NCBI GenBank assembly: GCA_048213135.1 | Contig: PS015381.1 | Span: forward strand, 4,229 to 52,425 | Reading direction: 5' to 3' | DNA: 48,197 bases | Origin: Reclinomonas americana ATCC 50394 | Lineage: Eukaryota | Shown here: positions 4,260 through 46,454 of the stretch, one piece after another | Numbering within the stretch: the stretch's first letter is position 1 | Layout of the letters: each line of letters begins with the position of its first letter | Translations under genes and position numbers: made by a program | Notes under the pieces: generated by a model | Databases searched by the model: none | The model's input: only the letters and a program-made list of their open reading frames with translations | What the model was told of the DNA's origin: nothing

Positions 4260-7200
4260 CCAACTGCCGGTGAATGCAGTGGCACTCGCAACGTCGACGA
4301 GGAGGAGCGCGAGGCAATGCACGTGGAAGAGGTATGCACACATTGTCTCTCTTTATATTCTCTCTGTCACATTGAAATGTGTGCAGGTTGCCGCCGACGC
4401 CTCCTCTCCTGTTGTTTCCTCACTCACTCGCCCCGACGGAGTGGCCGTGCTGACCATCAACAACCCGCCAGTCAACTCGCTCACTGAGCGCGTGTTCAAG
4501 GAGCTGTTTGAGTTGCGTTTACCTTCTTCTTGTCTTTGCATGAAAAAATGTTGATCTCATCATCGTGCATGGTTAGAGGGTACGCGCGTGCGGTGGCCGA
4601 CAAGGCCGTCAAGGCGATTGTCGTGCAGGGCGCCGGCAATGTCTTTGTGGCCGGTGCCGATATCAAGATGCTGCAGCGTCAGCAGCGTGAGAGTTCTGTT
4701 TCCCCCCGCCTTCTCTGTCTCATTTCCCTCTCTGTCTCTCCCTCATCCCTTCATCGTGTGTCTTTCTTTGTTCGTCAGTCGGTCCCGTGCTCCCTTTCTC
4801 TTCTCTCGCCTCCCGTCGCTCCCCTCTATCTCCCTCTCTTGGCTGTCTGTCCCTCCCTCATCCCTTCATTCTGTGTCTTTGTTCAGGCGGTCCCGTTCGC
4901 CCTTTCTCTTCACTCTCTTCCCGTCGCTCTCCTCTACCTCTCTTGTTTGCTTCGCTGTCTGTCTCTCTCTCATCCCTTCATCGTGTGTCTTTCTTTGTTC
5001 ATCAGTCGGTCCCGTTCTCCCTTTCTCTTCTCTCTCCTCCCGTCGCCCTCCTCTACCTCTCTTGTTTGCTTCGCTGTTTGTCTCTCCCTCCTCCCCTCAC
5101 CCTGTGTCTTTGTTCATCAGTCGGTCCCGTTCTCCCAGGCCCTTTCTCTTCTCTCTCCTCCCGTCGCCCTCCTCTATCTCCCTTTCTTGGCTGTCTGTCT
5201 CTCCCTCATCCCTTCACCCTGACAGTCTCTCCCCCTTCGCCCTCTCTCTCTATCTTTCTCCCTTTGTGGTTGTTTGTCTGTCTGTCAGTCCCTCTCTCTC
5301 TCCCCTTCTCCCTCCCATCCTCCCTCCCTTCTTCCCTTCCCCCCTTTCTCCTCGTCTCTCCCCTTTGTGTTTGTCCTTCTGTCTTCTGCAGTTCTGTCTC
5401 TCTGTCTTTCTCTCTCCACCCTTCGCCCTCTTCTATCTCCCCCGTGTGTGTGCTCTTGTGATCCGGTCCTCTCTCGCTTTGTTTGCTGTCTCAGTGTCTG
5501 TTCCTCCCTGCGCCCACTCTCGTGTTGCACCCTGCCTTCGCCTTCTTTTTCTCTCCCTCTCTCTTTGTCTGTCTCTAACAGTGACCCCTTTCCCCCCTTG
5601 GCATTCCTTCCCCACCCTCCCTTCCTTCTCCCCCTTCCCCTTCCCCTCTCTTCCCCCCTCAGACGTCAACATGGCGCAGTTCCTCGACGGCGTGAACGAG
5701 AAGCTCAACCAGCTCGAGTCTGGCCCGAAGCCGGTGGTGGCCGCCATCAAGTCGCTGGCCCTCGGCGGCGGCCTGGAGATCGCCATGGGCTGCCACGCGC
5801 GCATCTGCACCGCCGACTCCAAGCTTGGTCTGCCCGAGTTGCAGGTCTGTGTGTGTGCACCTTGTTTCTACTTGCAGCCGAGTCAACTCACTCTCTCGCG
5901 TGTTTGTCAGCTTGGCATTATTCCGGGCAATGGGTTAGTGCATTCTTCTCCTTTCTTCCATCTACAATCCTCTCACCCGCGTCGCGCACAGTGGCACGCA
6001 GCGTCTGCCGCGTCTGGTGGGCGTGCAAAAGGCCCTCGAGATGATGCTGGTGCGACACTCTCTTCCCCCTTGCCCCTTACCTTTCTTTACTGACGTTTGT
6101 CGGGCATGCAGCTGAGCAAGCAAATCAAGGCCGAGGAGGCCAAGAAACTCGGCCTGGTCGACGAGGTGGTGCCGAATGCCGCCGGTCTGCTGGATGCGGC
6201 TGCGGAGTACGCGCTGAAGCTGGCCTCCGGCACCATCAAGCGCCGCGAGGCGCTCACCTACACGCGCAAGCTGGAGGCATCGCTGATGGTGTCGATGATT
6301 TGCGCCGAGGCTCGCCGCCGTGCCAAGAAGCAAAATCCGCACGTGAACCACACAATCGAGTGCATCGATGTGGTCGAGGTCGGCGTCTCCAAGGGCGGTG
6401 CCGCCGGCTTGAAGGCTGTTGAGTCAGCGCGCATATGCCTCCCTCTCTCTTTCATGTGACTCATTCCACCCGCAGGAAGCGGAGGCGTTTGCTCGCTGCC
6501 AGCTGTCGGACGTGGGTCGCGCGCTCGTCTCGTTCTTCTTGGCCACTCGCGCCACGTCGCATGTGCCGGGAGTGACGGACACGGGGGCCAAGCCGCGCAA
6601 GATTCGCAGGTGGGTGGGGGGAGGAGAAGGGGGGGAAGGGGAAGAGAGAAGCAAATGGAATCATCGTCGGTCACCACTTTCTGCCTTGGTGTGTTTGTGG
6701 GGAGGCACTGTGTGATTTGACCTTTGATTTGATATTGTTCTTGTGGCGTTGTTTTTGTTTGATTGTGTGCTTGAGAGCAAGAGAGTTCTATTCTGTGTCT
6801 GCATGCGAGTCTTCCTCTCCATCTTTGCGCTTGTGTGGAGACTCCTCTCACCTCTCTCTCCTCCTCAGTATGGCCGTCGTCGGTGGCGGCTTGATGGGCA
6901 GCGGCATTGCCGGTAATGCTCTTCTCCGTGGCCTGCGCGTGATTGTCAAGGAGGTGAACCAGCAGGCACTCGACGGCGCCATTGCTCGTGTGCACGGTTT
7001 GCTTGTTCGCCTTCCTGTGCTATCGCACTCCGGTGTCACACTCATGAGGATTGCAGCCATTCTGGATTCGCGCCTGAAGAAGAAGCGCATGACCAAGGAG
7101 CAGTACGACGCCTGCAAGGCCAACTTTGTTCCGCAAACCGACTTTGCCGGCTTCAACCAGGTTGACCTGGTCATTGAGGCGGCCATTGAGAATGTGGAGC

Positions 7201-10200
7201 TGAAGCAGCGCATCTTTGCCGATCTCGAGCGCGAATGCAGCAAGACGGTGCGCCTCTCTTCACTTTCAGTCTGGGTGTGTTGGGCGATTGACCGAGTGGC
7301 CTTTCTATGTTGCAGTGCATTCTGGCCACCAACACCAGCACCATCGACCTCGACATTGTCGGCGCCAAGACGAGTGCCTCGGATCGCATTGTTGGTCTGC
7401 ACTACTTTTCGTTGCGTCCCTGTCACGTGTGTGCTGTGTGGCGCATGAGCGATCGCCTGACGACTACTGGCGGCAGACCGGCGCACGTCATGCCGCTGCT
7501 GGAGATCATTCGCGGCAAGGCGACCTCTGCGCAGGTGATGATCGGCGTGTGTCAGTGTGTCAGCGGGATTTCTCGCTCTTGATCGTTTGACGCTGTGTTC
7601 GTTGTTCAGGTGATTGTCGACTCTCTCGGCTTCTCGAAGCAAGTCACCAAGACACCGATCGTCGTCGGCAACTGCCCAGGTGTGTGCTGCGTTGGTGGGC
7701 ATTGTTGCTTGCTGAGTGATTGCTGACACGCGCGCACGCAGGCTTCATGATCAACCGGTAACGTGGTGGTGGTACATGGAGTCGTTTTCGTGCCGCATTT
7801 CGTTCTCACCTTATTTGTTTTGATCTTGGGACGTGATGCAGCATCTTCTTCCCCATGTTGCGTGAATGTGGTTTCTTGTTGTCGTGAGCTTGTTTCAGTG
7901 CTGACTTGTCGATCATTTCTGCGTGACTAGGTCGTTGCGTAGCTTGGTGTGCGCTTCCTGTTCTCACACAGTAGCTCACACCTCGCGGCAGAGCGAGTCT
8001 GCAGTTCCTGGTGGAGCGCGGCATGGATCCGTACGCCATCGACAAGATCATGCAGGACTTTGGCATGGCTCTCGGCCCCTTCCGCACTGGCGGTCTGTGA
8101 TATGGGTGAAAATCGCCCTGTGTACCTTCCTGCTGCTTGTGATATCTTCTCTCCTCTTTTCGTGATGTGCACCGCAGCATATCCTCTGAGCAGCGCGCTG
8201 TGGAGTTTCTCTCATTTCTGTCAGCTGCATACGTACTGCACAAGTCATCTGTCTGGTTGCTTCTCGTGGATGGCGCTGCATATCTACCGAATGTGTTTTC
8301 CCTGTCGTCACTCCTTCTCTGATGTTTACGCTTTGATCCATCTGCTCCGTTGCCACAAATATCAGTGTGGTTGCTGCTTCTCGTGCAGTTGCCCATCTCC
8401 CTCGTTCCTCACACCGACCTGTCTCCGTTCCTCCCGTCTCTGTCCTTCCTTCGCTCTCCATCTGTCTCCCCCTTTCTCCCGTGTCCCCTCACCACCTCTC
8501 CCCTTCCTCCCTTCCTCCCTTCCTCCCTGTCCTGCGACAGACTTGGCCGGCCTCGACGTCCTCGTGTACGCCCACGCGCTGATGGCGCAGTACTACGGCG
8601 ACCGCACCACCGGCATTGAGATCGTCAAGCAAATGGTCGCCGATGGCCGCCTCGGACAAAAGACAGGCGCCGGCTACTACTCGTACGCCAAGGGATCGCG
8701 CGAGGCCAAGCCGGATGCGCGTGGCATTGCCAAGTACATTGAGGCCGCGCGCCGTGGCAGCAAGGTGTGCTCGTGTCTGGGCGTCTCTGCAGACTCTCTC
8801 GTGTCTCTTCCTTGGTGTTCACTCTGTGTTGTTTTCTGGCGATGCGTTCTCTTCACTGTCCCTTTCGTGCTGTGCGCGCCTCTTCAGGGCGACGCGTTCT
8901 CTCGCCCATCTCGTTCTTCCATCCTCTCCGCAACCGCTCCTCACTCTTTGTTCCTTCCCCCCATTCCTTCCCCGTGTTTCTTCCCGCCTGTTCCTTCCCC
9001 CTCACGTTCCCCCATCACTTCCCCCTCTCCCTTCCCCGTTCCTTTCCCTCTTCTTTTCCCCCTCTTCCTTCACCCTGNNNNNNNNNNNNNNNNNNNNNNN
9101 NNNNNNNNNNNNNNNNNNNNNNNNNNNNNNNNNNNNNNNNNNNNNNNNNNNNNNNNNNNNNNNNNNNNNNNNNNNNNNNNNNNNNNNNNNNNNNNNNNNN
9201 NNNNNNNNNNNNNNNNNNNNNNNNNNNNNNNNNNNNNNNNNNNNNNNNNNNNNNNNNNNNNNNNNNNNNNNNNNNNNNNNNNNNNNNNNNNNNNNNNNNN
9301 NNNNNNNNNNNNNNNNNNNNNNNNNNNNNNNNNNNNNNNNNNNNNNNNNNNNNNNNNNNNNNNNNNNNNNNNNNNNNNNNNNNNNNNNNNNNNNNNNNNN
9401 NNNNNNNNNNNNNNNNNNNNNNNNNNNNNNNNNNNNNNNNNNNNNNNNNNNNNNNNNNNNNNNNNNNNNNNNNNNNNNNNNNNNNNNNNNNNNNNNNNNN
9501 NNNNNNNNNNNNNNNNNNNNNNNNNNNNNNNNNNNNNNNNNNNNNNNNNNNNNNNNNNNNNNNNNNNNNNNNNNNNNNNNNNNNNNNNNNNNNNNNNNNN
9601 NNNNNNNNNNNNNNNNNNNNNNNNNNNNNNNNNNNNNNNNNNNNNNNNNNNNNNNNNNNNNNNNNNNNNNNNNNNNNNNNNNNNNNNNNNNNNNNNNNNN
9701 NNNNNNNNNNNNNNNNNNNNNNNNNNNNNNNNNNNNNNNNNNNNNNNNNNNNNNNNNNNNNNNNNNNNNNNNNNNNNNNNNNNNNNNNNNNNNNNNNNNN
9801 NNNNNNNNNNNNNNNGGCACGAAGATGTTTCTTCTCTTGCGTGTAACTCACCTGCCTGCCACAGATCGTGCTCTTCCCGATCGTGAACGAGGCCTGCCGC
9901 ACCCTCGACGACGGCATTGTCATTCGCGCTTCCGACATTGACGTGGGCACAGTTGCGTCCGCTTTCTCCCTCCCTCTACTCCTTTGCCCCCTCTCCCTCT
10001 CTCATCATCTCTCAAACAGGTCATGGGTATGGGCTTCCCACCGCACCGCGGCGGCCTCATGTGCTGGGCTGACACCCTCGGCTCCCGCTACATCTTCGAC
10101 CGCCTGAACGAGTGGAGCCGCACCAATGCCTCGCACGCCGCGCTCTTCCGTCCCTCGCCGTTCCTCGAGGCTCGCGCCCGCGACAACAAGCCGCTCAGCA

Positions 10201-10205: not shown

Positions 10206-10523
10206 GCCACCACTGATGTGCACGCGCGCTTGTTACATCCTCTTTATCCGTTCAGAGTGTACGACGAAGGATGATGGGCTGCGGAAGTGGGGCTTGGTGT
10301 TCAGATACAGGGGTGAGCGCAAAATCGGTCATTATTGCCCGTGTACTTGTCCGTGTTTCTTCTCATGCCAGCGGACGAAACTCTGGATGGTGAACGTGAT
10401 CACGTTGTGGCAAGAATGCGACCCAGTGCAGCACACGGTAAGGCGGTGCTAATTCCGAACAGGCAGTGACAAAAGCATACTGTCTTTTCGCACTTTTTTC
10501 GTCGTCGTCACCGAGAACACACC

Positions 10524-11181
10524 ATGTCCAACGCTGCCACCGGTGTCTCTCTTCGTGGGTACTTTGTTGCTGCTGCAGGCAACGTGGAGGCCATGAAGGT
10601 GTGTGCAGTCGTGCGTGTGTCAGGGTGCACGGAATAATTACATCACAAACTTGTGCTTTGCACTTGCAGGCACTTGCCGACGAGGCTGTGAGCATCGTGC
10701 GTGCTGTTGGTGCGGAGAGTGGCTGCCGCAAGTTCGGCTAGTTGCGTTTTTTGTGTGAAGGAATCAACGCGCGCGTGCTCACCCGTCAACTCACACTCCC
10801 TTGTCTCTTGCAACACGTAGTTCCATGTCTCCGGGTGCGCTGGGGAGCGTCACGTTTACTTTCATCGGTTCGCCTCTCTTGTCGTTGAGCGCACAACAGC
10901 GCCCTGTGTTGCTCATTGTACACTGTGGCAGACGAGCATGACAGTGCGGAATCAGTGTTGGCGCACTTGGCGCGCGTGCACGGACCACTGAGTGGCACCG
11001 TCAATGTGTCAGCCTTGACGCGTTTCGAGGTGAGCAAAACAGCATGATGCTCTGCGCTGCGGCTGGCCATGGTGCTGACCTGCGAGCGCAGGTCATTGGC
11101 CCGAAGGCCGAACTGGACAAGCTGCGCGCGGCCCCGGAGGTTCTCGCGCTGCAGCCGGTCTTCTTTGAGCTGCAGGAGTGA
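10524..11181 (+). CDS. Small ABM-like (dimeric alpha+beta barrel) protein, tandem copy 1, 5 exons
   Basis: Splices to MSNAATGVSLRGYFVAAAGNVEAMKALADEAVSIVRAVGAESGCRKFGYSMSPGALGSVTFTFIDEHDSAESVLAHLARVHGPLSGTVNVSALTRFEVIGPKAELDKLRAAPEVLALQPVFFELQE. It has ABM-type ExGC..F.Y and ..AHL patterns, and intron positions are shared by all three copies. Confidence 0.75.
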
Positions 11182-11478
11182 GAGCACGCTGCGTGAGTGC
11201 CACGGCGCAGCGCAGCGGACGCCGATATTGTTTAGCATGCGCGCGCGCTCTGCGCATCTAGATCTGCAGTACGAGTGAAGCTGCTGTCGGTGGCGATGCT
11301 CCCACGTGCGCAACAGAGTGCTTCGGAAAAACGCCAACCCCTTCCTGCCATTCGGCTCTGCTACTGCCTGCACATGTCGCACCCGCGCTGTGCCATCGTC
11401 CGCAGCGCTTCACTGCCTCGTCGACGTTATTACCCCGTCCCACACTTGTTTTTTCGCCGCTATCGCCGAGCACATACC

Positions 11479-12154
11479 ATGTCCAACGCTGCCACCGGTG
11501 TCTCTCTTCGCGCGTACTTTGTTGCAGCTGCAAACAATGTGGAGGCCCTGAAGGTGCGCAGCAGTCGAGTGTGCGAGAGAGAGAGACACACACAGGGAAT
11601 AATGCATCGATTTCTCCTTTCCACATACAGGCACTTGCCGACGAGGGTGTGAGCATTGTGCGCGCTGCGGGTGCAGAGAGCGGCTGCCGCAGATTCGGCT
11701 AGTTGCGTGTGAATGCACAGAGTCGTCGTCATTCACAAGAAGCCAGTGCGCGCGCTCACTCTGTGTTCACAGCTCCATTTCCCCGGGTGCGCTGGGAAGT
11801 GCCACCCTTGCGTTCATTGGTTCGCCTCTCTCTCTCTCTCTCTCGTCGCTGAGCATGCAACCAACGTAGCTGCTCAATGTTGTGACTTGTGTGTGTTTGC
11901 AGACGACCATGATAATGCCGAATCGGTGGTGGCGAACTTGCAGCGTTTGCGCGGACCGCTGAGTGGCAGTGTCAATGTGACTGCCGTGACGCGTTTCGAG
12001 GTGAGCAAGCTGGTTCAGTGCATTCGTTTTCCCTGCATCTCTGACCTCTCCGTGCATGTCACAGGTCATTGGCCCGAAGGCCGAGCTGGATAAGCTTCGC
12101 GAGGCCCCGGAGGTGCTCATGCTGCAACCGGTCTTCTTTGAGCTGCAGGAGTGA
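11479..12154 (+). CDS. Small ABM-like protein, tandem copy 2, 5 exons
   Basis: Same exon structure as copy 1, MSNAATGVSLRAYF...VFFELQE*, with an intact frame. Confidence 0.75.
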
Positions 12155-12627
12155 GAGCATGTCGACATGGTCAGAGAGTCTTGCTACGGACGCCGTTTTG
12201 GATCATCGTCCGTGGCCAGTGAATAGAGTGTCACCAGATATTTGCATGGCAGCGCGCAGCGGAGCGGAGGTGGTAGTATGATGAATTCGGATCTGCTTGC
12301 ACGCCGCACCACATGGCGCAAACATGCAATATGCAAGGCCTCCAGCAACCACCGCCTCCACAGCAACCCGGACAGGTGACTACGTCGGCGTGTACTTCTG
12401 TGTGGGAGAAGCGGGAGACTCGCGACGGCGGGGTGTATCATGGTGAGTTGCGTTCTGCGGCAGCTTCTGCAACATGCCCTTTTTTTCACACACAGGCTGC
12501 TCCCTGTCGCCACGCGGCTCTGGTCGTCGTCCACCCGAGCGGCAGCTGCCTCGACGCTCAGGCACAGCGTTTCGGGACCGGAGTTACCCATCAATTTAAT
12601 TTGCGTCCGCCACGCACACACACGACC

Positions 12628-14052
12628 ATGTCCAACGCTCCCACCGGTGTCNNNNNNNNNNNNNNNNNNNNNNNNNNNNNNNNNNNNNNNNNNNNNNNNN
12701 NNNNNNNNNNNNNNNNNNNNNNNNNNNNNNNNNNNNNNNNNNNNNNNNNNNNNNNNNNNNNNNNNNNNNNNNNNNNNNNNNNNNNNNNNNNNNNNNNNNN
12801 NNNNNNNNNNNNNNNNNNNNNNNNNNNNNNNNNNNNNNNNNNNNNNNNNNNNNNNNNNNNNNNNNNNNNNNNNNNNNNNNNNNNNNNNNNNNNNNNNNNN
12901 NNNNNNNNNNNNNNNNNNNNNNNNNNNNNNNNNNNNNNNNNNNNNNNNNNNNNNNNNNNNNNNNNNNNNNNNNNNNNNNNNNNNNNNNNNNNNNNNNNNN
13001 NNNNNNNNNNNNNNNNNNNNNNNNNNNNNNNNNNNNNNNNNNNNNNNNNNNNNNNNNNNNNNNNNNNNNNNNNNNNNNNNNNNNNNNNNNNNNNNNNNNN
13101 NNNNNNNNNNNNNNNNNNNNNNNNNNNNNNNNNNNNNNNNNNNNNNNNNNNNNNNNNNNNNNNNNNNNNNNNNNNNNNNNNNNNNNNNNNNNNNNNNNNN
13201 NNNNNNNNNNNNNNNNNNNNNNNNNNNNNNNNNNNNNNNNNNNNNNNNNNNNNNNNNNNNNNNNNNNNNNNNNNNNNNNNNNNNNNNNNNNNNNNNNNNN
13301 NNNNNNNNNNNNNNNNNNNNNNNNNNNNNNNNNNNNNNNNNNNNNNNNNNNNNNNNNNTTCATTCGCGGATACTTTGCCGCTGGAGGCAGCAACGTGGAG
13401 GCCTTCAAGGTGTGCGCGCGAACAGAGCGCGCGGAAAAACCACTCAACATTGTCTGTCATCTCGCATATATCTAACGAACGATTATACTAAACTTGGCAG
13501 GCACTTTCTGATGAGGCTGTGAGCATTACGCGCGCTGCTGGTCCGGAGAGCGGCGTCCGCAAGTTTGGATAGTTGCGTGTACACAACACTGTGAGGAATT
13601 GATGACATCATTGACATTCATCAATCCGCTCTCTCTCTCTCTCTCGCTTCTCCTCTCACGCATTGCTTTCTGAATCACTCGCAGCTCCACCAGCACGGGT
13701 TCGCTGGGGTGCACTCAGTTCGCGTTCGTCGGTTCGTCTCTCTCTCTCTCATACAGTATCTCTTGCTCTGCTGATCTTGTTTGCTGCACTGCAGAGGAGC
13801 ACGAAAATGCCGAGTCTGTGCTGGCGCACTTGGTGCGAGTGCATGCGCCGCTGAGTGGCTCCATCCATGTGGCCGTCATGACGCGTTGCGATGTGAGCCA
13901 CGCTGTGCTATTCTTTTACCAGTTGACTTGTAGTCGTTGCGCACGCTGACCTCCAAGTACAGATCATTGGCTCCAAGGCGGACCTCGACAAGCTCCGCGC
14001 GGCCCCGGAGGTTCTCCCTCTGCAGGCGACGTTCTATGAGCTGCAGGAGTGA
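12628..14052 (+). CDS. Small ABM-like protein, tandem copy 3 (exon 1 split by an N gap)
   Basis: MSNAPTGV before the gap continues as FIRGYFAAGGSNVEAFK after it. The same four introns are present and it ends TFYELQE*. Confidence 0.7.
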
Positions 14053-14395
14053 TTCAGAGCAGCAATTGTGGCGCCGTCCACTGCATTGTTGCAGTCACTT
14101 CCAATGAACACATATGCAGTGGTGCCTCTTGCCAGAATGTTGCATACAAAGTGGTGGGGAAGGCCACAATAACGTTGCATGCGCAGTGACAACTGTGTCT
14201 CTTAGCAATTTCGTTTGTCCTCGAGTGATTGTTGTTTTCGTTGTGAGTGTGTTTCGCTGCGAGCAGACTGTGTGTGAGGTGAGTTCTCATTCAAGCGCTA
14301 CACTGAGAGCATCGCCTTGCTGCATGCCTCCCTCACGAACTCATTGTTATTTCTCCGACCTGTGTCTCTCTCTTTCTCTCTCTCTGTGAAGAAGA

Positions 14396-33400: not shown

Positions 33401-36400
33401 TGAGCACAGACGAAATGCAAAGCAATGGTCTCCACTGTGTCCGCAGCCAGTGCGTCCACCGTCGGCACCTTGTGCACTCGCTGCATGGTGAGTTCCTGGG
33501 ACGCACGACATACGCAAGGTGAACAAATGACCTACACCAGCGCAAGCACTCAACCACACTCGCACGTACCTGGGCGCCGAGTTTCGTGCACGTCACACGA
33601 TAGAGACGCTCTTCGGCCTCGTCGTCGTGCTTGAGGCTGTCAATGGTGGCAATATGGGGGGCGGCATCGACCCGCGCGGCCCACGACAGCGTCTCCTTGA
33701 CCGAGTTGCTGCCGGAGCGCCATTTGGCCAGCGACGACGACGACAAATCCCACGGTTGCACGCCCTTGACCATCTGCAATAGCAGGTGGTGAGGTGGCAC
33801 CACGAGGCGACAATGGCAGAGACCGAGACGCAACCTGCAAGGTGGCTGTCGCGCCATACGACACGACAATGGTGGTGCTGGGCGGCGAAATCATCTGTGC
33901 GCCACACGTCGTGTCAGAAAACAGCAGCTCGTCAGTATTCCCTCCGGTCGGCGACTCACCTCCAGATCGTAGTACGCGCCAATCAGCGTCTCTGCCGTGA
34001 TATCCAATCCGGCAAGCCGATTGTGATATGTTGCCTGCATGTTTGTGCGGCCGTCGTGATCATCAATCGCTTCACCTCTACCACTCGAAATCCCACGTCA
34101 ACGCACCTCGATGACCGACACTCCAACCTCCTTGGCACGCAGATGCACACAGCTGGCGCGGCAGGCACCATCGGCAGTGGTCGATGCACTCTCTGGCGCG
34201 TCGTACACTGTGGTGTTGTGCACACGCCAGGAGACCTGCAGCAGCGTGGCGTTGTGGAACACACGACCCCTGATCAAAGTTTTTCTCCAGTCAGTGACGA
34301 GAATCACACGACATCAGGCTGCCATAGATGCACACAACTCCTTGTCCTCAAACAGCAACTGCAGGGGGAGATGGTGCGAGACGCCGGCTTCGCGCACACC
34401 ACGCGCGAAAAAGGCGCGCTCTGGCGTGTTGACAATCACCTGCAATGAAGAGCTAAATGCATGCACCAAAAGTTGAAGCTCCGTGGATGATCACACCTGA
34501 ATGCGGTCACGATTGAGCGGATTGGCGGCGTCCGAGACCACGATGAATGTCTCGCCCGTTGTCTGTCGAGCACATGAATGAACAGCAGTGGCGCAACAGA
34601 ATACTAGCTAACACGGATATCCACAAACCAGTCCAGTGATCACACCACGATCCACCGACGCCACCGCCGGGTTCATCGACTCCCAAACATAGGAGCCGCT
34701 CCCGCCCAGAGCCTGGCAGACAGACAAACGGCTAGTCAGTCAATCGCTCCTCTTCCACCCACCACCTCCTGCTTCTCTCACCGTCAGTGTGCGCGAGTGC
34801 AGCAAGTGCGTATCATGCGGCAGCACCAGTTGCTTCTCGCCAGTTGCGGCACTGTCGCCATTGACGACAGCACGATCGCTCCACTGAATCTCCACCGGCG
34901 CATCAATGTGGAGAGTGCTGCGCACGGAAAGCTGATGCTTACGTGCCTACAATACACGGGCGTGTGAGTTTGTGGAACAGTTGGGATTCGCACGGAGAGA
35001 GAGAGGGCTCACCGAGGACGCGTCGAGCAGCGACCACGTCACCACTGTCTCGCCCACTTGGCGCGCCACCACGGTGGCCGACGTGCTTCGCGGATGTGCA
35101 CTGATGCTGCGCAGCGAACGCTCGTCCAACTCGACAGAGAAGACCATGTTCTGCAACCAGAGTGCGACATGAGGACCAGACCGCCAAAGTGATACACAAA
35201 TCGGGAGTCCTCTCACACCTCGGTGATAAACACTTCGTTCTTGTCGCTCATGACGTGCACGCGCAGATCGTACGTCTTGCCAGAAATGAGACGAGACGTG
35301 CTCGCAATCTACCGCAGAGCAAGTGAGTGACTCGTCCGCGCAAGTGGTCACATCGCGACGAGCGCAACATTCAGCAGCAGGTTGCGCATGTAGGCTGGGA
35401 ACTCCTCGTGGAAGTGCGGATGAATGGAGATCTTCAGCGAGGTCGGGTTGACCACGAACACGCGACACTGTGCCTCATTCTGCTCAAGACGTGCATCGCG
35501 AAAAAAAGTCAAGGCACAGACGAGCACAAAGAAGTGAATCGATGACGGGGAGCAGTCAAGTGAGAAAAAGGATATTTGGATCGCGAGCAGACACCATCGC
35601 GTCGCCCGGCTTGCGCGCCGTAAAGTGCCCGATGCTGCTGATGGCGCCGACTGCTGCATCACTGACACTCCACTTGAACTGATTGCGCGGATCCGCAGCC
35701 GACAAAACTGATCAACGGCAGCCGTGAGCACGCACGACGAAACACACGTAAAGGCAAAGATGGGCGACCACTAACCACTCGACGTGCCATCCGTGATAAT
35801 GTGCAACGCAAAGGTGAGCTCGGCCGCCGGCGCGAGGTACAGCGGGCCCGGTGGCACGATCTCGATGTTGTCCACCACCGTCAGCGTGACGCTGGCACTC
35901 AGAGTCTGATCGGCCGCCACCGCCGCCGTCACTTCCACCACTCCCGGCTTGGCACCGCGCACCACAATCTCATCGGAGGTGGATCCCTCGTCCTCCGTGT
36001 GCAGCTGTTCCTCGGAGCCCTTGAGACTGGATTCGTGGATGTTGAGCAGTTGCAACACATCGCCGCTGTGACAGGGGGTGTGAGAAGGCGACGACGACGA
36101 CGCGGAATGCACATGTACATGCATGCAGACCTTGTTCGTCGCTGAGATTCGGAAATGTGTTTGGACACTGTCCACTTGAACGGCAGACCATGCAACGTCG
36201 TGAACGCATTCCCTGCACGCCACCTCGGTCACTGTCGAGTTGGACATCCATCGCCGACTGCACGTGCGCACACACACACCTTCACGATCAAAGCCCTGCA
36301 TCGAAAGCGTCTCCATCTCCGACACAAAGAGGCGTCTCGAAGTGGTCAGCACCTGCAGTCGATGAATCTTCGCCACAAACACCTCACAGCGCAATTGCTT

Positions 36401-37126
36401 GCCGTGAGCTGCAAGAAAAAGGGTGAGACCGGCAGCAGAGAGGAAGGAAAAACAAGACACCACGAAACTCTTGTCGCGGGCCGTGACCACCGCCATGGCG
36501 TCCTTGCTCGTACCACTGTTTGCATACACCTGCACCAATGCAACCATGAGGAACCGTTGCCGGCGAGAGAGAGACAACAACAACAACAACAGAGGCGAAA
36601 CTCGAGCCGACGACATGCATGCTGATCCGACAAGCATGTGAGAGACATACACACAACCTCGCGCACAAACATACACACACACACACCAGTGGCTTCTCCC
36701 TCTGCGCCTGCAGCACCAGCAGCAGCACCAGCAGCAGCCAAGGCAATCGGTTCCACATGCACAGTGGACGGGTCCTGTGAGCGCCACTGGAAGCAGCTAT
36801 CGGGCAAGTACTCGGCGCTGAGCACAAACGACACACGCGAGTCCGGCGGCAACAGCACCGACACCTGTGTGTGCGCGCATTCATTCAGTCATGCAAAATG
36901 CGCGCGCACGCATGTGTGACTGTGTGTGCGCGCATGCATGTGGCTCTCTTCTCTCTCCTCTGTTTACTCGACGTGCATGTGCGCATGCATGCGAGTGTGC
37001 GCGTGTGTGTGAAAGAGAGTGTCTGTGCAAATGACTTGCCTCTGAGATCTTTGCAGCTGGTGCAGCCGCCACTGTCACCACCAGCAGCACGACCAGCAGT
37101 GCGAGCACCGACAGAGGCTGCCGCAT
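27863..37126 (-). CDS. NUP210: Nuclear pore membrane glycoprotein gp210, more than 35 exons
   Basis: Signal peptide MRQPLSVLALLVVLLVVTVAAA, then ISEVSVLLPP..CFQWRS, LRCEVFVAKIHRLQVLTTSRRLF, GFDREGNAFTTLHGLPFKW, ALGGSGSYVW and multiple Ig-like segments. It ends in a single C-terminal TM (VVLVLVLLYIIYITYL) and a TP/SP-rich tail. Confidence 0.9.
30356..30432 (+). repeat. (CA)n microsatellite in a NUP210 intron
   Basis: Directly visible next to a gap. Confidence 0.95.
35491..35575 (-). other. U12-type AT-AC intron in NUP210
   Basis: 5' end ATATCCTTTT, branch site TGCCTTGAC, 3' end GCAC. Removal joins ARDP-S-LEQNEAQCRV in frame, whereas read-through hits TGA. Confidence 0.88.
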
Positions 37127-37205: not shown

Positions 37206-40200
37206 ATGGAGGGTGCGACCGAGGCTGCTGTGGAGGTTGCTGTACTGCGCGGCCATGGCAACACAGTGCGACGGTTTGCGTGAACGCGTGTGTGTGAGCG
37301 AGCGAGCGATGTGTGAGCACGATATTGATCACCACGCGCACATACACAACAGAGTGTTGTATCATCCTCGCGCAAACGAGGTCTTGTCGGCGTCACTAGA
37401 CGGCACGCTGAGAGTTGCGTGCATCATGCGCTCTGTCTCTCTCACTGTGAACGCCGATTGTCATTGTTTATGTCGTAACGATCAACAGCTGTGGGACCCG
37501 AGTGCGTGGGAAGGAGCGGCGACGATGCCTGTGGTGGTGCCGCAGGCGGCTGGTGTGCTGGCCATGCACTCGGATCAGGTGTGGAGCGTGGCGTATCGAC
37601 CGGATGGACGGGAGTTTGTGTCGGCCGGCTGGGATCAAACGCTGCGAGTGTGGCGAGTGCGAGTGCCCACGGCTGCTCCAGCTGCCGCCACACCGCAGCT
37701 GACGCCCAATGAGATGTTGTTTGGGACCTCGGCTGGTGAGTCGTGCGATTGCGCGAGTGTGTGTGTGGGGTGTGAGTTGTCTCTCATGTTGACGCGCAGG
37801 ACCATCGACTGCGGTGCCGTCTTCGGTTCAACCTGCCGGCACTCCGCCCTCGTCGGTTCGGCCGTCTGCGGCCCCGTCGCCGGCTCCTGGAGCGCCACCA
37901 GGAGGTGGCACACCGAGAGCATCTGCCGAGCCACCACAGCCAGCTGCAGTCGCTGACGATGATCGGCCGCCGCACGGTGTGCCGGTGTGTGCGCTGCACT
38001 GTGGGGTGGAGCTGGTGGCCACCATTCAGCAACCGTGTGCAGTGTGGGATGTGGCGTACCATCCTGATGGCTCGCAGTTTGCCTCGGCGTCACACGATCG
38101 GCAAGTGCGTCTGTGGAACGCCGAGACGCGAGAGTGCATCACCACTCTGAAGGGCCACACTCATCAGGTGCGGAGATGGCTGTGATGCGCAACAATTGAT
38201 CTCTTACCTGTGTGTTCAAGGTGATGAGCGTGGCCTACCACCCCACTGGAGCCGTGCTGGCCTCTGTGTCCCTCGACTATTCGGTACGCCTGTGGAATCC
38301 ACGCACGTTTGCCTGCTTGTGCGTGCTGGAGAACGCACACACGGATCAAATCTGGTGTGTGGCGTTCCACCCCGGCGGCCAGCAGTTTGCCACCTCGTCT
38401 CTCGACGGCAGCATCAAGGTTTTGTTCGCCGCCACTTCACGCTGCTGTCGCAGCAGAGCAGTGCACTCACATCGACTTCCTCCCCCTCCCCTTCTTCTCC
38501 TTCGTACTAGGTGTGGGAAGTTGTGGAGCAAATCAGCAAATCGGCCGCCAACAAGCGCAGCTCGCCGACTCCGACGCCGTCTGTGTCGGGACGTGCATCG
38601 GCCACCTCACCGAGTCCAGGTGCCTCACGGGCAGTCACGCCTGCCGGTGCCAAGACACCCGTGACGCCTGGCGTGTCGGGTCGAGGCACGCCAGTGCCCT
38701 CGACGACTTCACCGACGCCCGCGCGCAGTCCGAGTGACGCGCCAATGCCAGAAATCACCGAGCCGCTGCATGTGAACTGCGTGTGCACGCTGCAGGGCCA
38801 CACGGGCGAGGTGTACGGTGTGGCGTACCATCCGTTCGGCACGCACTTGGCGTCGGCGTCGGGTGACGGGCGCGTCAAAGTGTGGGACACTCAGTCGCAG
38901 CGCTGTCTGCTCACCGTGTCGGGACATCAGTCGGAGGTGTGGGACGTGGCGTGGCACCCGCGTGGCCGCCACCTGATAAGCTCGTCGGCAGACCGCACCA
39001 TCCGAGTGTGGGAGTTGCCGTCGGCGGTGCCCACTGGCGCACTCCAACTGCAATGTCTGTCCTCGTCGGACTCCACGCTCACGTTGCAGACGGCGAGCAG
39101 TGCGCGCACTGTCGGGTGTGTTCGCATCGTGGAGATGCTGCAAAATATGTTTGACGGCGCAGAGGATGCCATGGCACCGGTGGAGATGCGCGAGAGCACG
39201 GGAAGGAGAGTACGACGGCGACAACTGAAACGCTCGGCGTATGCGGAGGAGGCGAATTTGGACACGGAGAACGATGCCGACGACGATGACGATTCGTGGG
39301 AGCGTGTTGGCGAGTTGGTCGACACCGCCCCGCTGCTCATCACCAACTTGGCGTGCAGCAGCTGGTACGTGTTCCGCGTGGTGGCGTTGCATCCGGAGAA
39401 GTTGACGCCGCTGGTTATTGGTGAGCGACACGCTTTCAAGACCTCGAGCAAGGTCCTGTCGCGTCTTCGCGTCGAGTGCGAGAGCGCAGTGTCGGGCCCA
39501 GGTGCCACTGGTCTCGAGGTGTGTATTGCTAGTGATGATCTCTGTGCACCGAAGTGGAGTGTGCTCACTTAATGTCAGGGTGTGCATGCCATGGAAGAGG
39601 GCGATCAGTTCGAGGGCGGCAAGGTCGTAATTCCGTTCCTGCTGGAGTGGTTCGACGAGTTGCCTGCGGGGTTTGGCGACCACGCGCAGACGGTGCAGCA
39701 GGTGCAGCGACTCGTGAGCTCCCTGACGGCCTACGCGGGCCCATTGACCACCGAAATGTGTGTGCTGACGGAGCTGCTCAAGCGCGATGTGTGGAAGGCG
39801 CACTCGGTCAACCGGCAAGTGTATCCACGGCTGCGCGAGTTCCAACGACTCCTCGAGCACGTGCCAAAGGTCAAGCAGGCGCTGCAGCAGGCGGAGCGAG
39901 GCGATGTTGCGTTTCCTGCCGGTTATTCTTACTCAACCTGTGCCCACCTATTGACGGCTGCGTGCGTGTGTTCAGGACCTGCGTACGCGTCAGGCACTCC
40001 ACGAAGAATACTTGGCGTCACTGAAGAGGCTGGATGAGTTGTGCACGTTCTTTACCTTTGAGGCGCCGTTCCTGCAGCTGCCGCGGCCGACCGAGTCCCA
40101 CACGCTGGCCACGCAGCTGCTGAATGGACGCCTCGAAGTGAAGCAACAGCTGCTGCGCACGGTGGAAACGCGCATGCTGCGCTCGCTGGAATGGATTGCC

Positions 40201-41898
40201 GAGCGCAACGAGGTGGTCGGCGAAGAGATTGCCGAGTTGGAGAAACAGCTGCGAGCAAAGTGCGATGAGCGTGCCGCACTGATTGAGGTTGCGTGTGTAT
40301 TCAGTCCTCTCACCATTTCTTACTCAATTCTCACCAACTCTCTTTCCTTTCTCAGTTGGAGCGCGAGTATCGCAACAAGGACGTGCGGCAGGAGAGAGAC
40401 ACGATTGTGTTTGAGGAGTGGAGGGCGGCACTGGAGGAATTGCGGCAGACAGCGGACGCTTGCTTCTCCGTTCTCGCCAACGACGTGACGCAAATGCAAA
40501 AGGAGATTACTGTGCACGAGGATCTGGCCGCCAAGTCGCACAAGTCGACGCTGGAGGATTTGTTGAAGACGCTGGAGGTGTGTGTGGATAGCAGCTGGTG
40601 GTGGGTTATGTGCATGCACCATTTAACAAATATCGATGCAGACGGACTCGCGCGTGGCCGAGGCGCGCATGCGTACCTTTGAGAAGAAGATCCAGCGCGA
40701 ACTGGAGCTGCTGGAGGACCTCAAACAAGGCAACATGGCGTTCGAGTTGGCCAAGTCGCAACAGCAGATTGCCGAGTGGAATGCCGAGGGTGTGAAGCTC
40801 GACGAGTACCTCGGCAGCAACGAACAGTACGGCCTGCAAGCGCAACAAAAGCTGGCGTCGGTGGAGGCGGAGCGAGAGGCCATGCAGCGTCTCTTCCGAT
40901 TCCCAGACAAGCTGTGCGACGGACAGTTTACGGACGTGCGCATCATGTATCGCAGTGATCACCGAGTGTTGCTGGGCGCCTACGACACCGTGCGCAAGAA
41001 GCTGGTGTGTTTGCGCTTCTACATGGCGCGTGCTCTGCGCGACGACGAGGCGGCGGTGTTGGAGGAGTTGCGATCGCCGTTTGTTGTGGAGCTGTTGGGT
41101 GAGGTCACGTTGGAGGACGAGTCGTCGGCCGACTACACGGCCATGCATCCGTTCTTGTACGGTCTCGTGTTGCAGCGCGGAGTGGAGAGCCTTGGAGACT
41201 CGCCACCAGCGCCGCTGCAGGTTTGTGCCGCCACCCTGCTCTTACATTCTCACTGTGTGTGCTCACACCATCCGCGCCAGCAACTGTACTATGGACGCAG
41301 TGCGTTGCGTGCGTTGCAGTACTTGCACAACTCGGACGCGGTGCACGGCGACCTCAATGTGCACACGCTTGTCAAGTTCATCGACGACGACTGCAATGTG
41401 TCGCTGCGCTTCGGCAGTCTGTCCGGATCGCGACCAGTGGGCACGGTGCTACCGCGTGGCCGTGGGCGACTCGAGTTTAGTGCGCCGGAGCTGTTGAAGG
41501 CCATCCTCGCCGATGGCGAGCTGAAGGCGGTGCCGAGTCTCGACGTGTGGTCCATTGGTCTCGTGCTATTCGAGGTGTTCTTCTACGGCCAGTCGTTGTA
41601 TCGGCGCTTCTTTGTCGACGACCCCGAGGACCGCAACACGCCGTACGAGGAGCGCGTCAAGACCTGGCTACTCAGCAACACCGATCCGGGCATGCAGCTG
41701 CCGCGTGCAGTCAAAGCTCCAGGGCCCGTGCGGCGCCTAATCGAGGCCGCCTTGCAACGCGACCCGAACAAACGACCGACCGCCGCCGACCTGCAATCGC
41801 AGCCGCTGTGGAGTGTGTTTGGTGCTCGTGAAGCTGCGCTGTTTCATGTCGGCGTGGACTTTGCCAGACCACCACCACGATTGTCGCACCCAACGTGA
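37206..41898 (+). CDS. WD40-repeat + FN3-like + coiled-coil + C-terminal pseudokinase protein
   Basis: Repeats such as LRGHGNTVRRVLYHP..SASLDGTLRLWD, LKGHTHQVMSVAYHP..SVSLDYSVRLWN and LQGHTGEVYGVAYHP..SASGDGRVKVWD. FN3-like LLITNLACSSWYVFRVVA. Kinase-like HGDLN, FSAPE, LDVWSIG and DPNKRPTA. All are linked in frame by GT-AG introns. Confidence 0.85.
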
Positions 41899-41955: not shown

Positions 41956-44900
41956 TTAGAGTAGTGATGATGGTGGCGACTGCGTGCGCTCCAGTGGGTC
42001 GAAAAAGTCGGGAACGCTGGCGGCGGTCGGCGGAACCAGTGGTGGAGCCGATTCCTCGACAGCCGCCGAGGAGAACCACGCACTGGCTGGCGGCACTCGC
42101 GGTTGCGGTCGCCAGCGACTTCTCGCTGTTGTCGATCGCGACGCGGCCACAGCAGCAGCTGAAGACGAGGAGGATGGGTCCATTGTGGCGGCGGCGGTCG
42201 TCTCGAGGTCGCTGCTGTGCGTCATTCTGCGGAGCACAACGGAGGGTTGTGAGCGTCATTTGCAAGAACACGTTCATTGTTGCGTGCGCGTTACCTGCCA
42301 GGTCCGGCCCATATTACTTGGCCACGATCGGTCTGCGCACCCGGCCAGCGGTGTGTTACGGTACGTGTCAGCGGTATATGCACGCCGAGACGGCCACCGA
42401 GCGACAAGGCCATCTCAGATGGGTTTTTCGGTGCCGTCACCGCCAGTCGGCCAACGTCGTGCCTACCGAGAATGGTGACGGCGTTGAGTCGATACTCGCG
42501 CGCAATCAGCTTGGTCTCGAGGAAAGTCGGTGCCTTTCTGTACTGCCTGCACGATCCATACAGGAAGATGACGAAAGGAAGAAGCGAGAGAGCACGAGCA
42601 GCAGTGTCCCTCACCGCTCCTTGGATCGACAGAACGGCAACATGGGCAGGATAACAACAGCCACAATCGACGTCATGTACAGCGCCAGGAGGAGCGGAGG
42701 GATCCAGGAATGCGAACGTGGACCGCCCCAGAACTGTGACACTGAGATTTGAGTGCAGGGAAAGGGGCTGGTGAGGAGCAGCGCAGAGTGCGGACGCAAC
42801 GCGGCCGCTGACGGTGGTATCCGTCACCAGGAAGATGTTCATGATAAATGCCGACAACAACGCCACATCAATAGCCGTCACAAAGCACACTAGATACGCC
42901 AAGTCGGAGAACTGGTGCGAGGGATAAAGTCAGAGAGCGTGCGCACACAAAAAATGTTATCAATGGGAGAGGGCGGACACAACTCGGAGAAAGTGTTTCG
43001 AGGTCAACTTGCGGAAGCACAGACGCACGAGAGCCACAAATGGCAGAATGAGAACATTGAGGCGCGAACGCATCAATTGCGGCAAGCGGCGATAGAACAT
43101 CTGCGCCGTGCGAATGTGAGCAAAGAGACGACCCGGTGCGGGCACTTTCGTTCACACACGCACCACACGGACAGTCGGCACCTCAAAGTTGGCCAACGTG
43201 TACTCGCCGTCCCATCGAATGCCAAACGTGACGTTCCGGTAGTTCTCTCGCGGCGTGTACTGCCCAGAGAATTGCAGCGTTTGCACATTGGTGCCATTCA
43301 CGTCCGCTGCAGGGGCGCCGGTCAGCGACGACGCGCAGCTGGACAAGAGCGACAAGCAGGAGACCTTCAACAAAACGCGCCACTATCGCAAACTTCATCA
43401 ACGACGACATGGTCGTGCGATCGCGCAGACTGAACCAGCCACGAGTGCTGGTGTTCTCGCGTCCACTCACTAGCAGCTTGAACGCATACGTGACATTGGC
43501 CTGCGCGCGGACGCAACGTTGATACGAAGAGAATGAAGACAAAGCAGACGCGCTGCGGAGAACAGGGTACCCGACCTGCAGGTCCACATGATCCGACTGA
43601 AAGTAGTAGTAGCTGACGTAGTTGACGTGCATGCGACGGGCCAACCACATGGCCGCGAAGAGCCAGCTGAAGAAGACCAGCGCCAGCAGAACGAACCCGT
43701 AGGTCCACAGCCGGGCCAACCACACCAGCAGATCGGGATCCGTCATGATCTGCAGTCGGGGAAAGGAAAGAGGCAGATTCGCAGTTGAAAAGGAGCCCGT
43801 GACCTCACCTCATCTCTCTCTCTCTTCCTCCCACTCACTCACCATCCAGTCAATGGTAAACGCGCAGTGTACCGCCAGCGGGCTGTACAGCTGCACGCCG
43901 TCGCAACTGGTACTGCTGGCCACAAACACACTCTGCGCGCAGCCGGACTGTGAAAGAGGGCGCACGTAGTGCGCCGCATCGACACAGGAGGTGGTCGGCA
44001 GAAACTCAAACTGCTGCTGTGCGGCTGTCTGCTGGATGGTGGCGGCAAACAGATCACAATTGCCGACATTGCGGCACGGCTGCTGGTCCACGCTGCTGCC
44101 GCCAAAGTCGACAACGTCGAGCACCACAAACATCTGCAACCCCCGCAGCGATCAACGACTGGTGCACGCAGTGCGACGAAGCAACGAAGCAACGAAACTG
44201 CAGGCAACTCGCCACTTGGACCAAGAGCGAGACGGATCGGGACCGTCAACGTGGTCTGCATTCGATCGACGGGGCCGACCCAGTCCGACTGCAGCTGCCG
44301 AGGGTCCGGCAGAAAGTCCACAAACTCCAGCGCCATCAGCTGCAGTCGCTTGCAAGGTGCCTGCTCGCCGACCTCCACCGGCTGTGTCGCCATTCGTGAG
44401 GAACAGGCCCTCCGCTGCGCCAAGACAAGCACGCAACTCGATACGAGAAGCCCGACGGACACGTTCCATCCACATATAACGTGGTCGCGAGCGCCACACG
44501 CAGCGCCAAGGTATCCGTATACACCGCCTCCGACAGATCCATCAACGACGCCACTCGCATCGTCAACAGAAAGTACTCTCGTGTCTCCGGAAACGCAATC
44601 GTCTGCCCGCTGGCATACGGCTAAAACAACCAAAGCGATATAAGCCATACACTTGAGTCAGTGATCACCAGCAATGAGAATACAAACCTGACTCGGACCC
44701 GACAGCGACCAGAACGGGATGAGAAAGTATGGAACTCCCAGTACCATGGCTGCCACGCCCAGCACCACCAGCAGCACAAACACCAGCTTGCTTCCGTCCT
44801 CCACGCACGAGCAACACTTGCGACTCCACGCGGACTTCTCACCTCTCTCATCGCCACCGACATTGTCGTCTGTGTCATCAGTGAACAGCAAGAGTGGCTG

Positions 44901-45041: not shown

Positions 45042-45145
45042 ATGGCTGCTCCGACGGCCAACGGCACTGACCCGTTCTATGTGGTGCAAGAGTTGCGTGT
45101 GTGTCTCTCGCTGAGTGTGTGACGTGTGTCTCTCACTCTCTTGTT

Positions 45146-45177
<32 letters not shown>

Positions 45178-46454
45178 GCACAGGGAGGTGAAGAAGCAGC
45201 TGGAGTCCATGCGTGTGCTCTACGATCAGCTGCGTGAGGTGTACAAGCCCAAGCAGGCGCAACAGGGACCAGACTTTGAGCAATTGCGCAGTGAGCTGCG
45301 GTCAGTCGACTTTACACACACACACTCACTCACACGCACTCACACGCACACTGAGACAGGCGCACGCACGCACACACACGCATTCCACTCTCCATGTGTG
45401 ATGATTGTGCATTTTTATCTGGTGCATTGATTGCACACACAAGTGTCACTCACTCAGTCATAACACAGTGAGTTGGTCGACGATGTGCTGTGGAGCACTG
45501 GAGAGCTGTCGAAGACTGTGAAAGCCGTGGAGAGGTTCCGCAGCAAGCACCCGGGAGTCACAGACGCTGAGCTGCGGAGACGACGAGGTGCGACAAGGGA
45601 AAGAGAGGGAAGGAGAGCACTCTCTCTCGCGCGCGCGTGGAGGGCTCACTCTGCTGTGTGCGTGTGCGTATGTGCTTGGGGGAGTAGAGTTCATTGCGGA
45701 CTCTGAGCGCGAGACGAATGGAGTGCGCGACTTTATCAACAACCCGTCGGTGTCGCTGGTGACCTCGGCACGCGATGCCAAGATGTCGCTGCGTGGCGAG
45801 ACTCCGTCGCCCGACAGTCAGAGCCGCGCGTCGTCCATGCGCTTTGAGAAGGCGCGACAGGAGATGGAGCAGGATACGCAGCGCTTGTTGGATAATGAGC
45901 GCATGATGCGAGAGGTGTGTGTACGACGGAAACGCAGCAGCAATATGTGATGAGTGCCGGAGCTCATGATCGGGGTGCGCGCGCACAGGTGCGGTATGAG
46001 CACCAGGATGCCAAGGTGTCGGAGATTGGCAAGCAGGTGGCCCGTGCAAGGGAGATTGGTGTGGAGATGGGCACGGTGATCGACAGGCAGAATGCGTTGC
46101 GTTTCATTCATGGAAGAGCGAGTCGTGTCGTGCAGCCCCTCACCCCAGTCACTGGCACAGTGAACTGCGCGAGCTGGAACACAAGACAGGTTTGCTATTC
46201 GTTGGCGCACTGCGTTGCCTTGTTGTGTGCTGAGTCCTTATTCCGCAGACGAGACCAACTCCAAGTTGAAAAACGGCATTCGCAAGCTGCAGGAGCTCTT
46301 GCGGAACTCGAGCGGTTCGTCACCGCCTCCCCATGCACTCACGCACACGATGCCTCACACCGCTTGCTTCCCTCCCGCAGACCGCAAGAAGCTGTGCACG
46401 ATTTGCATTCTCATTGTGATTCTAGTCGTTCTTGTCTCGCTAATCTTTGCCTAA
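45042..46454 (+). CDS. Syntaxin-6/Tlg1/SYP61-like Qc-SNARE; 8 exons
   Basis: N-terminal DPFYVVQEEV and ELRRRREFI (Syntaxin-6_N). SNARE motif HQDAKVSEIGKQV..IGVEMGTVIDRQNAELRELEHKTDETNSKL, then a C-terminal TM ICILIVILVVLVSLIFA*. Confidence 0.88.

Follow-up and report, generated by a model that had tools for sequence, protein, structure and literature searches.

Do exons that end in A, C or T pass into their introns at a second kind of 5' splice site (donor), one base out of step with the usual one? The question is raised by a gene-dense stretch of 48,197 bases from Reclinomonas americana ATCC 50394 (contig PS015381.1, positions 4,229 to 52,425), which we call the window and whose own numbering is used below. 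A sequence-only reading of this DNA had proposed that donors after an exon-terminal G are mostly GTNNG, with the normal G at +5, while GTTNNG, with the G at +6, is used after the other bases. We have defined as canonical the donors of the form G/GTGCGT (GTNNG; the slash marks the exon-intron boundary), and as S-type the GTTNNG class, typically non-G/GTTGCGT. Our analysis confirms the observation of a one-base-shifted donor class, with GTTNNG accounting for 22 of 107 pooled donor calls, approximately one in five. As to what these donors are, we lean slightly towards a view drawn from the sequence, namely that they belong to ordinary major-spliceosome introns whose canonical 5' motif lies one base further in and is read in a shifted register.

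The window has a G+C content of 58% in its sequenced parts, contains eight N runs and is crowded with short introns, whose length mode is around 64-68 nt. Its canonical donors are unusual in base composition too: across the window, 42 of 61 have G at +3 and just 4 have A there, while at +4 T or C stands in 44 and A in 16 of the same 61. The acceptor is CAG in 82 of 91 introns. Junctions were called from the window DNA, one bacterial-type homolog (P0001) and solved structures of homologs. For the first set, P0001 was aligned to the enoyl-CoA hydratase/3-hydroxyacyl-CoA dehydrogenase gene with a protein-to-genome spliced aligner that demands GT..AG alone and has no donor matrix. This gave 16 introns, 15 of which were used, the one across an N run being dropped. 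Three of the donors are S-type, at 6418 (T/GTTGAGT), 7411 (C/GTTGCGT) and 9952 (A/GTTGCGT), all of them after a base other than G; of the other 12 donors of this gene, 10 follow a G and none of these 10 is GTTNNG. For the second set, we took the window itself as training data for a gene-finder of the generalised hidden Markov type, which misplaced or missed introns for as long as its donor model had no room for both chains. The final donor model combines a matrix for -3 to -1 with a first-order chain for +3 to +8 and a fixed GT between them. Since this fixed GT separates the exon and intron parts, the model is unable to encode a dependence between the -1 base and the intron side. With it, 105 introns were called, and 9 of the 10 donors that could be evaluated agree with the homology calls. 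The pooled set (n=107) consists of the homology calls for the P0001-aligned gene and the gene-finder calls elsewhere.

In this pooled set, GTTNNG was found in 19 of 38 donors after a non-G base and in 3 of 69 after G (Fisher p = 5e-8). The association was also present after subtracting a region of tandem paralogs (15/29 versus 3/62, Fisher p = 6.5e-7), among donors lacking any other in-phase GT up to 18 nt away (11/17 versus 2/39, Fisher p = 5e-6) and in the P0001-aligned gene alone (3/5 versus 0/10, Fisher p = 0.022). Sense-strand GTs that are not donors (n=2,877) showed no coupling, GTTNNG making up 4.1% of those after non-G and 4.2% of those after G (p = 0.9). One could argue that a donor model with independent parts might inflate the number of canonical donors preceded by G. 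The depletion of G before GTTNNG could not be produced by this model, because it rewards a G at -1 in every case. The link between the -1 base and GTTNNG, which the sequence-only reading had suggested testing as a dependence of the intron side on -1, is confirmed in the window, and its statement that exons ending in G mostly go with a G at +5 holds as well, this G being kept in 58 of 69 donors after G and in 13 of 38 after non-G. Its count of about 28 GTTNNG among about 33 non-G donors proved somewhat optimistic: the class stands, and in place of 85% our calls put the S-type share of non-G donors at about 50-65%, our estimate being 50-75%. Two donors that follow a non-G base, C/GTGCGT at 23241 and A/GTGCGT at 23612, seem to be truly canonical.

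The class is also seen in the occurrence of its motif. All 20 GTTGCG sites listed in the sequence-only reading are present, those on the minus strand being numbered by their 5' G, and so are the variants GTTCTG, GTTGAG, GTTCCG, GTTGTG and GTTTCG. The hexamer GTTGCG is mildly enriched, with 60 occurrences against 43.5 +/- 6.5 in shuffled sequences (none of 100 shuffles reached 60), and it is also found inside exons and on the antisense strand, with 17 antisense matches in genes. The heptamer GTTGCGT occurs 20 times in sense, never in antisense and once outside genes. Among the 140 permutations of its own letters, which together give 680 sense and 334 antisense occurrences, it is the most strand-asymmetric. 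This heptamer is the real unit of the class: it differs from G/GTGCGT by one base and by the place of the cut. Besides, two donors read GTTTGCG, at 43393 on the minus strand (A/GTTTGCGAT) and at 15663 on the plus strand (G/GTTTGCGCG), with the GCG block as if displaced by two bases.

To compare the two motifs position by position, we used a curated S-type set of 26 donors (19 blind calls and 7 made by inspection, paralogs being counted once). These have T at +3 in all 26, G at +4 in 21, C at +5 in 24, G at +6 in all 26 and T at +7 in 19. The commonest canonical bases at +3 to +6, GCGT, are thus mirrored at S-type +4 to +7, and the S-type T at +3 corresponds to the canonical T at +2. Exon-side preferences are shifted along with the intron side. 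The S-type -1 (A12 C6 G3 T5) is distributed like the canonical -2 (A28 C15 G6 T12; chi-square p = 0.99) and unlike the base that precedes ordinary GTT in exons (p = 0.005; A in 46% versus 19%, p = 0.0013), and the S-type -2 (A7 C7 G9 T3) resembles the canonical -3 (A15 C19 G21 T6). The idea that G/GTGCG and /GTTGCG are one motif with the cut moved by 1 nt therefore fits well, exon side included, and is well supported by these sequence statistics. The rule given for the class, use after an exon without a final G, is better put as follows: the canonical exon-terminal G became intron +1, and the new -1 acts as the old -2. When pairs to the standard U1 5' end (AUACUUACCUG, as given in PMC4856993) are counted, the shifted register comes out ahead of the canonical one for 17 of the 19 GTTNNG donors and for 1 of the 61 GTNNG donors.

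The behaviour of -1 also bears on a bulged register, in which the +1 G would pair with C8 of U1, one U of +2/+3 would bulge out, GCGU would pair canonically and the exon side would stay unshifted. On the intron side this arrangement is identical to the shift. For human 5' splice sites, PMC4856993 lists one-nucleotide bulges at +2/+3 (68 predicted), and duplex folding pairs the +1 G with C8 in 4 of 26 S-type sites with the standard U1 end and in 5 of 26 with a hypothetical form carrying G-C at positions 5-6. A bulge, however, predicts that G is favoured at -1, where it pairs with C9, and G was observed there in 3 of 26 sites, equal to the 15% background, versus 53 of 61 canonical donors. That the new -1 acts instead as the canonical -2 speaks against simple bulging of a U, under which a G at -1 would remain favoured, and we consider this alternative improbable.

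The individual sites are the following, with the calls or readings on which each is placed.

4512 to 4576, plus strand: S-type intron A/GTTGCGT...TAG; frame ..ELFE-E-GYARAVADK; plausible.
6418 to 6475, plus strand: S-type intron T/GTTGAGT...CAG; spliced homology alignment and gene-finder.
7411 to 7476, plus strand: S-type intron C/GTTGCGT...CAG, in frame and stop-free; spliced alignment, missed by the gene-finder.
7857 to 7991, plus strand: S-type intron T/GTTGCGT...CAG; reading of the sequence; plausible.
9952 to 10019, plus strand: S-type intron A/GTTGCGT...CAG; spliced alignment and gene-finder.
10741 to 10944, plus strand: S-type intron A/GTTGCGT; gene-finder.
11702 to 11902, plus strand: S-type intron, paralog of 10741; gene-finder.
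13572 to 13684, plus strand: S-type intron, paralog of 10741; gene-finder.
17605 to 17819, minus strand: S-type donor C/GTTTCGT, new; gene-finder, in a weak gene model adjoining an N run.
21760 to 21872, plus strand: S-type intron T/GTTCCGT; gene-finder, more than one run.
26467 to 26536, plus strand: S-type intron C/GTTGCGG after a 23-nt exon (26444/5 to 26466); reading of frame and homolog spacing.
27091 to 27154, plus strand: S-type intron A/GTTGCGC; gene-finder and upstream exon end.
29703 to 29778, minus strand: S-type intron A/GTTGCGC...TAG; frames ..TWFSDRPHVV-K-VDPVSGVATAEQEGEAVVRA.
29828 to 30096, minus strand: S-type intron A/GTTGCGG, 269 nt; reading of frame.
32358 to 32429, minus strand: S-type intron C/GTTGCGC; gene-finder, multiple runs, no in-phase alternative GT within 18 nt.
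33089 to 33160, minus strand: S-type intron A/GTTGCGC, 72 nt, in frame and stop-free; inspection, missed by the gene-finder.
33774 to 33834, minus strand: GTTGCGT donor after G (exception); gene-finder.
35309 to 35368, minus strand: S-type intron T/GTTGCGC; gene-finder.
36409 to 36468, minus strand: S-type intron A/GTTTCGT; gene-finder, multiple runs.
37414 to 37488, plus strand: S-type intron A/GTTGCGT...CAG; exons join as ..SASLDGTLR/LWD.
38419 to 38528, plus strand: GTTTTGT donor after G, new, acceptor uncertain (38510 or 38528); gene-finder.
39906 to 39975, plus strand: S-type intron T/GTTGCGT; gene-finder, multiple runs, no in-phase alternative.
40288 to 40355, plus strand: GTTGCGT donor after G (exception); gene-finder.
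42734 to 42800, minus strand: S-type intron C/GTTGCGT, new; gene-finder.
44134 to 44198, minus strand: S-type intron A/GTTTCGT; gene-finder.
44382 to 44437, minus strand: S-type intron A/GTTGCGT; gene-finder, multiple runs.
45092 to 45183, plus strand: S-type intron A/GTTGCGT; gene-finder.
46096 to 46160, plus strand: S-type intron C/GTTGCGT; gene-finder.
4687 to 4699, plus strand: ambiguous donor, C/GTGAGA at 4687 or A/GTTCTG at 4693, frame identical; aligner and alternative-GT check.
32256 to 32265, minus strand: ambiguous donor, A/GTTGTGT at 32265 or T/GTGTTG at 32262; alternative-GT check.
34338/34335, minus strand: ambiguous donor pair, like 32265/32262; alternative-GT check.

Our own calls reproduced exactly 16 of the 28 S-type sites of the sequence-only reading, as well as three of the sites it had set apart as exceptions (G/GTTGCGT at 33834 and 40288, and 13893), and added the GTTNNG donors at 42800, 17819 and 38419. 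Some of its other sites are backed by inspection; 4693, 32265, 34338 and 36601 are ambiguous and 7934 is doubtful, and at 25607, another of its exceptions, a GT is present on the minus strand only (C/GTAAGG, seen as an alternative). Regarding the sites with homology, the 7411 junction joins HYFS/PAHVMPLLEII, which aligns without gaps to HFFSPAHVMQLFEII of the homolog. Two placements have a competitor 5 nt away: at 4512 the gene-finder chose 4517-4578, also in frame, and at 7857 the aligner took 7862-7993, with a GAG acceptor. The 7857-7991 intron contains a second GTTGCGT at 7934 (plus strand), right after ..CTAG/GTC, whose use as a donor would need a 3-nt exon (7931-7933); it may be such an exon, an alternative or recursive donor, or chance. 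Inside the intron of about 970 bases that starts at 4687/4693, a 119-base C/T-rich unit is tandemly repeated (4724-5221, 4.3 copies, 82% match).

The donors at 26467 and 27091 lie in a plus-strand gene (25900-27812) for an L-galactose dehydrogenase homolog (PDB 8scc, 7smi, 7lh6; E to 1e-18), which carries the 23-base exon with its TAG acceptor at 26444. In solved L-galactose dehydrogenases, the STK-to-FDFS spacing is 7-11 residues; the 26467 model gives 11, and reading through gives 33. Upstream of 27091 the exon closes with WHPAPETL, and in the alignment to 8scc_A this is where WHPAPPEL ends. The exon that follows 27154 gave no match in a PDB search, so this junction rests on the gene-finder and the upstream exon end; a word-based homolog search with exon 26836-27090 gave no match either. 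The join ..SASLDGTLR/LWD at 37414 is what we take to be the end of a WD40 repeat, and the frames joined across 29778 and 30096 presumably follow an immunoglobulin-like (Ig-like) repeat pattern. The 29828-30096 intron is strongly purine-rich on its sense strand (GA/GGGA runs), whereas the usual introns are C/T-rich, and the 33089-33160 intron has a CTGAC branch-like motif, a T run and CAG.

Three sites had been described as paralogous and not independent: 10741, 11702 and 13572 are indeed tandem copies, and they were counted once in the composition tallies. The plus-strand region 10206-14464 consists of tandem paralogous gene units that repeat their donors, among them G/GTGAGCAA at 11030 and 12001, with a further TGA/GTTGCGT at 12447 beside an N run. 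On the minus strand, exon 31287-31700 gave no match in a word-based homolog search, and a full HMMER search returned generic Ig-like repeat proteins and a fragment of 134 residues, P0002, with 54% identity. P0002 is an open reading frame on a 1.1-kb public contig; its stretch ETGIRIVSVPQLVIG is identical to the exon, and it reads on beyond the exon's end. Its likeness to the exon therefore points to a relative of this organism in public read assemblies; two metagenome scans for the P0002 locus gave no match.

S-type introns look like ordinary major (U2-type) GT-AG introns by length, acceptor and branch spacing. Their median length is 66.5 nt versus 71 for the other introns, the acceptor is CAG in 15 of 18 versus 67 of 73, and a branch-like YTNAY, as a motif match only, is found in 15 of 18, 13-43 nt from the acceptor, and in 59 of 73 of the others. 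All of them were called with GT..AG and keep the reading frame. The first exon base after the S-type AG is unconstrained (G6 A4 C5 T3), so a one-base slide of both boundaries would mostly change the messenger RNA. The shared, stereotyped 7-base start could also be expected of a mobile intron family carrying its own donor sequence. Such a family would leave similarity further in, and blastn-short among S-type introns from +9 to +70 found none at E <= 0.01; with no shared sequence beyond +8, and with lengths, acceptors and branch spacing equal to those of other introns, we rejected this reading within the window and regard it as extremely improbable.

U12-type introns resemble the S-type in being a second stereotyped donor class within the same genes. 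Their consensus is RTATCCTT at the donor and TCCTTRAY at a branch near the 3' end. U12-type identity was rejected for the S-type introns, no S-type donor resembling RTATCCTT. Elsewhere, the sole RTATCCTT of the window belongs to a candidate U12-type AT-AC intron at 35491-35575 on the minus strand (/ATATCCTTTTTC...CCTTGAC, 18 nt, then AC/), which spans 85 nt and leaves the frame intact (..GDAMVSARDP-S-LEQNEAQCRVFVV..). The gene-finder had placed a GT-AG intron (35594-35480) there, probably wrongly. This candidate suggests that the organism keeps a minor spliceosome.

How a shifted register might work can be set out in a few steps. The recognition motif would be unchanged from the canonical (A)G/GUGCGU and placed one base deeper in the intron. 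If the first G of a canonical intron were replaced by U, the former exon-end G would form the sole available GU and become intron +1, giving A/GUUGCGU. The motif would be read by an RNA, presumably the U1 5' end, pairing one position out of its usual register, with the cut then made by the catalytic centre at the GU. We infer that U1 is the reader and that its pairing is shifted rather than bulged; its 5' end may be adapted (complementary to UGCGU), or a protein may stabilise the contact.

The gene-finder missed 6 of the 15 homology-supported donors, mostly stop-free in-frame introns and introns beside very short exons. Known stop-free in-frame short introns score +4 and -0.2 (donor plus acceptor plus intron-minus-coding), and in an ab initio scan for such introns none passed. 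Several results weigh against the shifted-register reading. Without a donor model, the gene-finder called 50 and 65 introns, fewer than half of them after G, and showed no significant link between -1 and GTTNNG (7/30 versus 4/20, p = 1, and 11/38 versus 4/27, p = 0.24); these runs are too noisy. Unspliced GTTGCGT is found in coding-looking exons at 41304 on the plus strand (..ALRALQYLH..) and at 43517 on the minus strand (..SSYQRCVRAQ..). These heptamers are apparently unused as donors, which means that GTTGCGT alone is not sufficient. Protein homology would also allow both intron ends to be cut one base further downstream, an option opposed by the GT-AG rule alone, and the basis is a single 48-kb window, from which the proposed routine rule in this organism is an extrapolation.

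The missed donors and the absent link would also be expected if the class were an artefact, with junctions misplaced and a common hexamer mistaken for a donor, and so would the antisense matches of GTTGCG in genes and the in-frame alternatives that several sites have 3-6 nt away. Yet homology placement, which requires GT-AG only, falls on the motif at 6418, 7411 and 9952, the spacing in solved homologs backs 26467, and protein motifs join across 37414, 29778 and 30096. Given also the 20:0 sense count of the heptamer and the agreement of nine in ten evaluable gene-finder donors with homology calls, we find an artefact very improbable.

The remaining points against a shifted register concern U1. 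Nearest-neighbour duplexes of S-type sites with the standard U1 end average -1.64 kcal/mol, in no consistent register, in comparison with -6.63 for canonical sites, and the +1 G pairs with C9 in 4 of 26. Such feeble duplexes mean that a shift on ordinary U1 is by itself not a sufficient explanation. Besides, the class is narrower than a pure shift would make it: C stands at +5 in 24 of 26 S-type sites, versus 21 of 61 for the corresponding canonical +4, and A, the base that pairs with standard U1, in 1 of 26. G at S-type +8 (6/26) does not mirror G at canonical +7 (31/61). The insistence on GCG, together with the weak binding to standard U1, leads us to predict either that the U1 5' end is adapted or that some factor stabilises the contact, both of which are plausible; the altered U1/U6/U5 or accessory factor implied in the sequence-only reading thereby gains some indirect support. 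Folding against the hypothetical U1 end with G-C at positions 5-6 brings S-type duplexes to -6.85 kcal/mol and pairs the +1 G with C9 in 14 of 26. A class that is more stereotyped than the canonical one (+4 G, +5 C and +7 T in 21, 24 and 19 of 26) and feebly bound by the standard U1 end might equally have a separate reader, be it a second U1 variant, another small nuclear RNA (snRNA) or a protein that recognises UUGCGU, the likeness to the canonical motif being then partly coincidence. We judge this unlikely: it would not explain why the exon side and +3 correspond to the canonical motif, and Rfam at gathering thresholds gave 0 matches within the window.

Shifted-register 5' splice sites of human genes were reportedly described by Roca and Krainer in 2009. 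For human sites, PMC4856993 documents registers of both kinds, shifted and bulged. In those shifted sites, as in the S-type, intron +1 G takes the place of the exon-terminal G and the cut stays at GU; in human, however, they are rare exceptions whose intron part is rich in A (test oligonucleotide ACA/GUCAAGUAUA in PMC4856993), whereas the S-type makes up 22 of 107 donors. The human +2/+3 bulge and asymmetric-loop registers, also in PMC4856993, share with the S-type the GUU donor and a strong pairing block one base downstream, but they keep exon-side pairing, with G favoured at -1, while the S-type -1 acts as the canonical -2. By sequence, S-type donors have U at +3 and GCGU at +4 to +7. A missing -1 G is usually compensated by a better match in the unchanged register; in the S-type, in contrast, the +5 G is lost (kept in 13/38 donors after non-G versus 58/69 after G) and reappears at +6. 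A dependence between the exon-end G and the +5 G is known in canonical donors, as stated in PMC8283771, and the likeness is that donors without a -1 G differ on the intron side. In the literature on the motif with splicing and on shifted registers, a search mostly outside subscription journals found no routine second class in any organism, and the class could have been reported in a genome paper. A tunicate paper raises the possibility of such a class in its discussion only (PMC13326754).

A single register with G at +5 is built into donor models, gene finders and annotation pipelines, and a single-matrix donor model would misplace or miss about a fifth of this organism's introns. If the class holds genome-wide, what is a curiosity in humans would become a mainstream recognition mode, with predictions on the 5' end of the organism's U1. 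In its broadest form, which we hold to be possible though rather doubtful, the proposal is that this lineage runs the major spliceosome routinely in two registers: the U1 5' end would have drifted until it matched UGCGU (with, for example, ..CGCA.. where the two pseudouridines normally stand), the active site would accept a gap longer by one nucleotide from the cut to the snRNA helices, and around a fifth of the introns would depend on it. Were this two-register reading true, the organism would offer a natural system for how the spliceosome measures the cut site, and an evolutionary route by which intron boundaries may move by one base.

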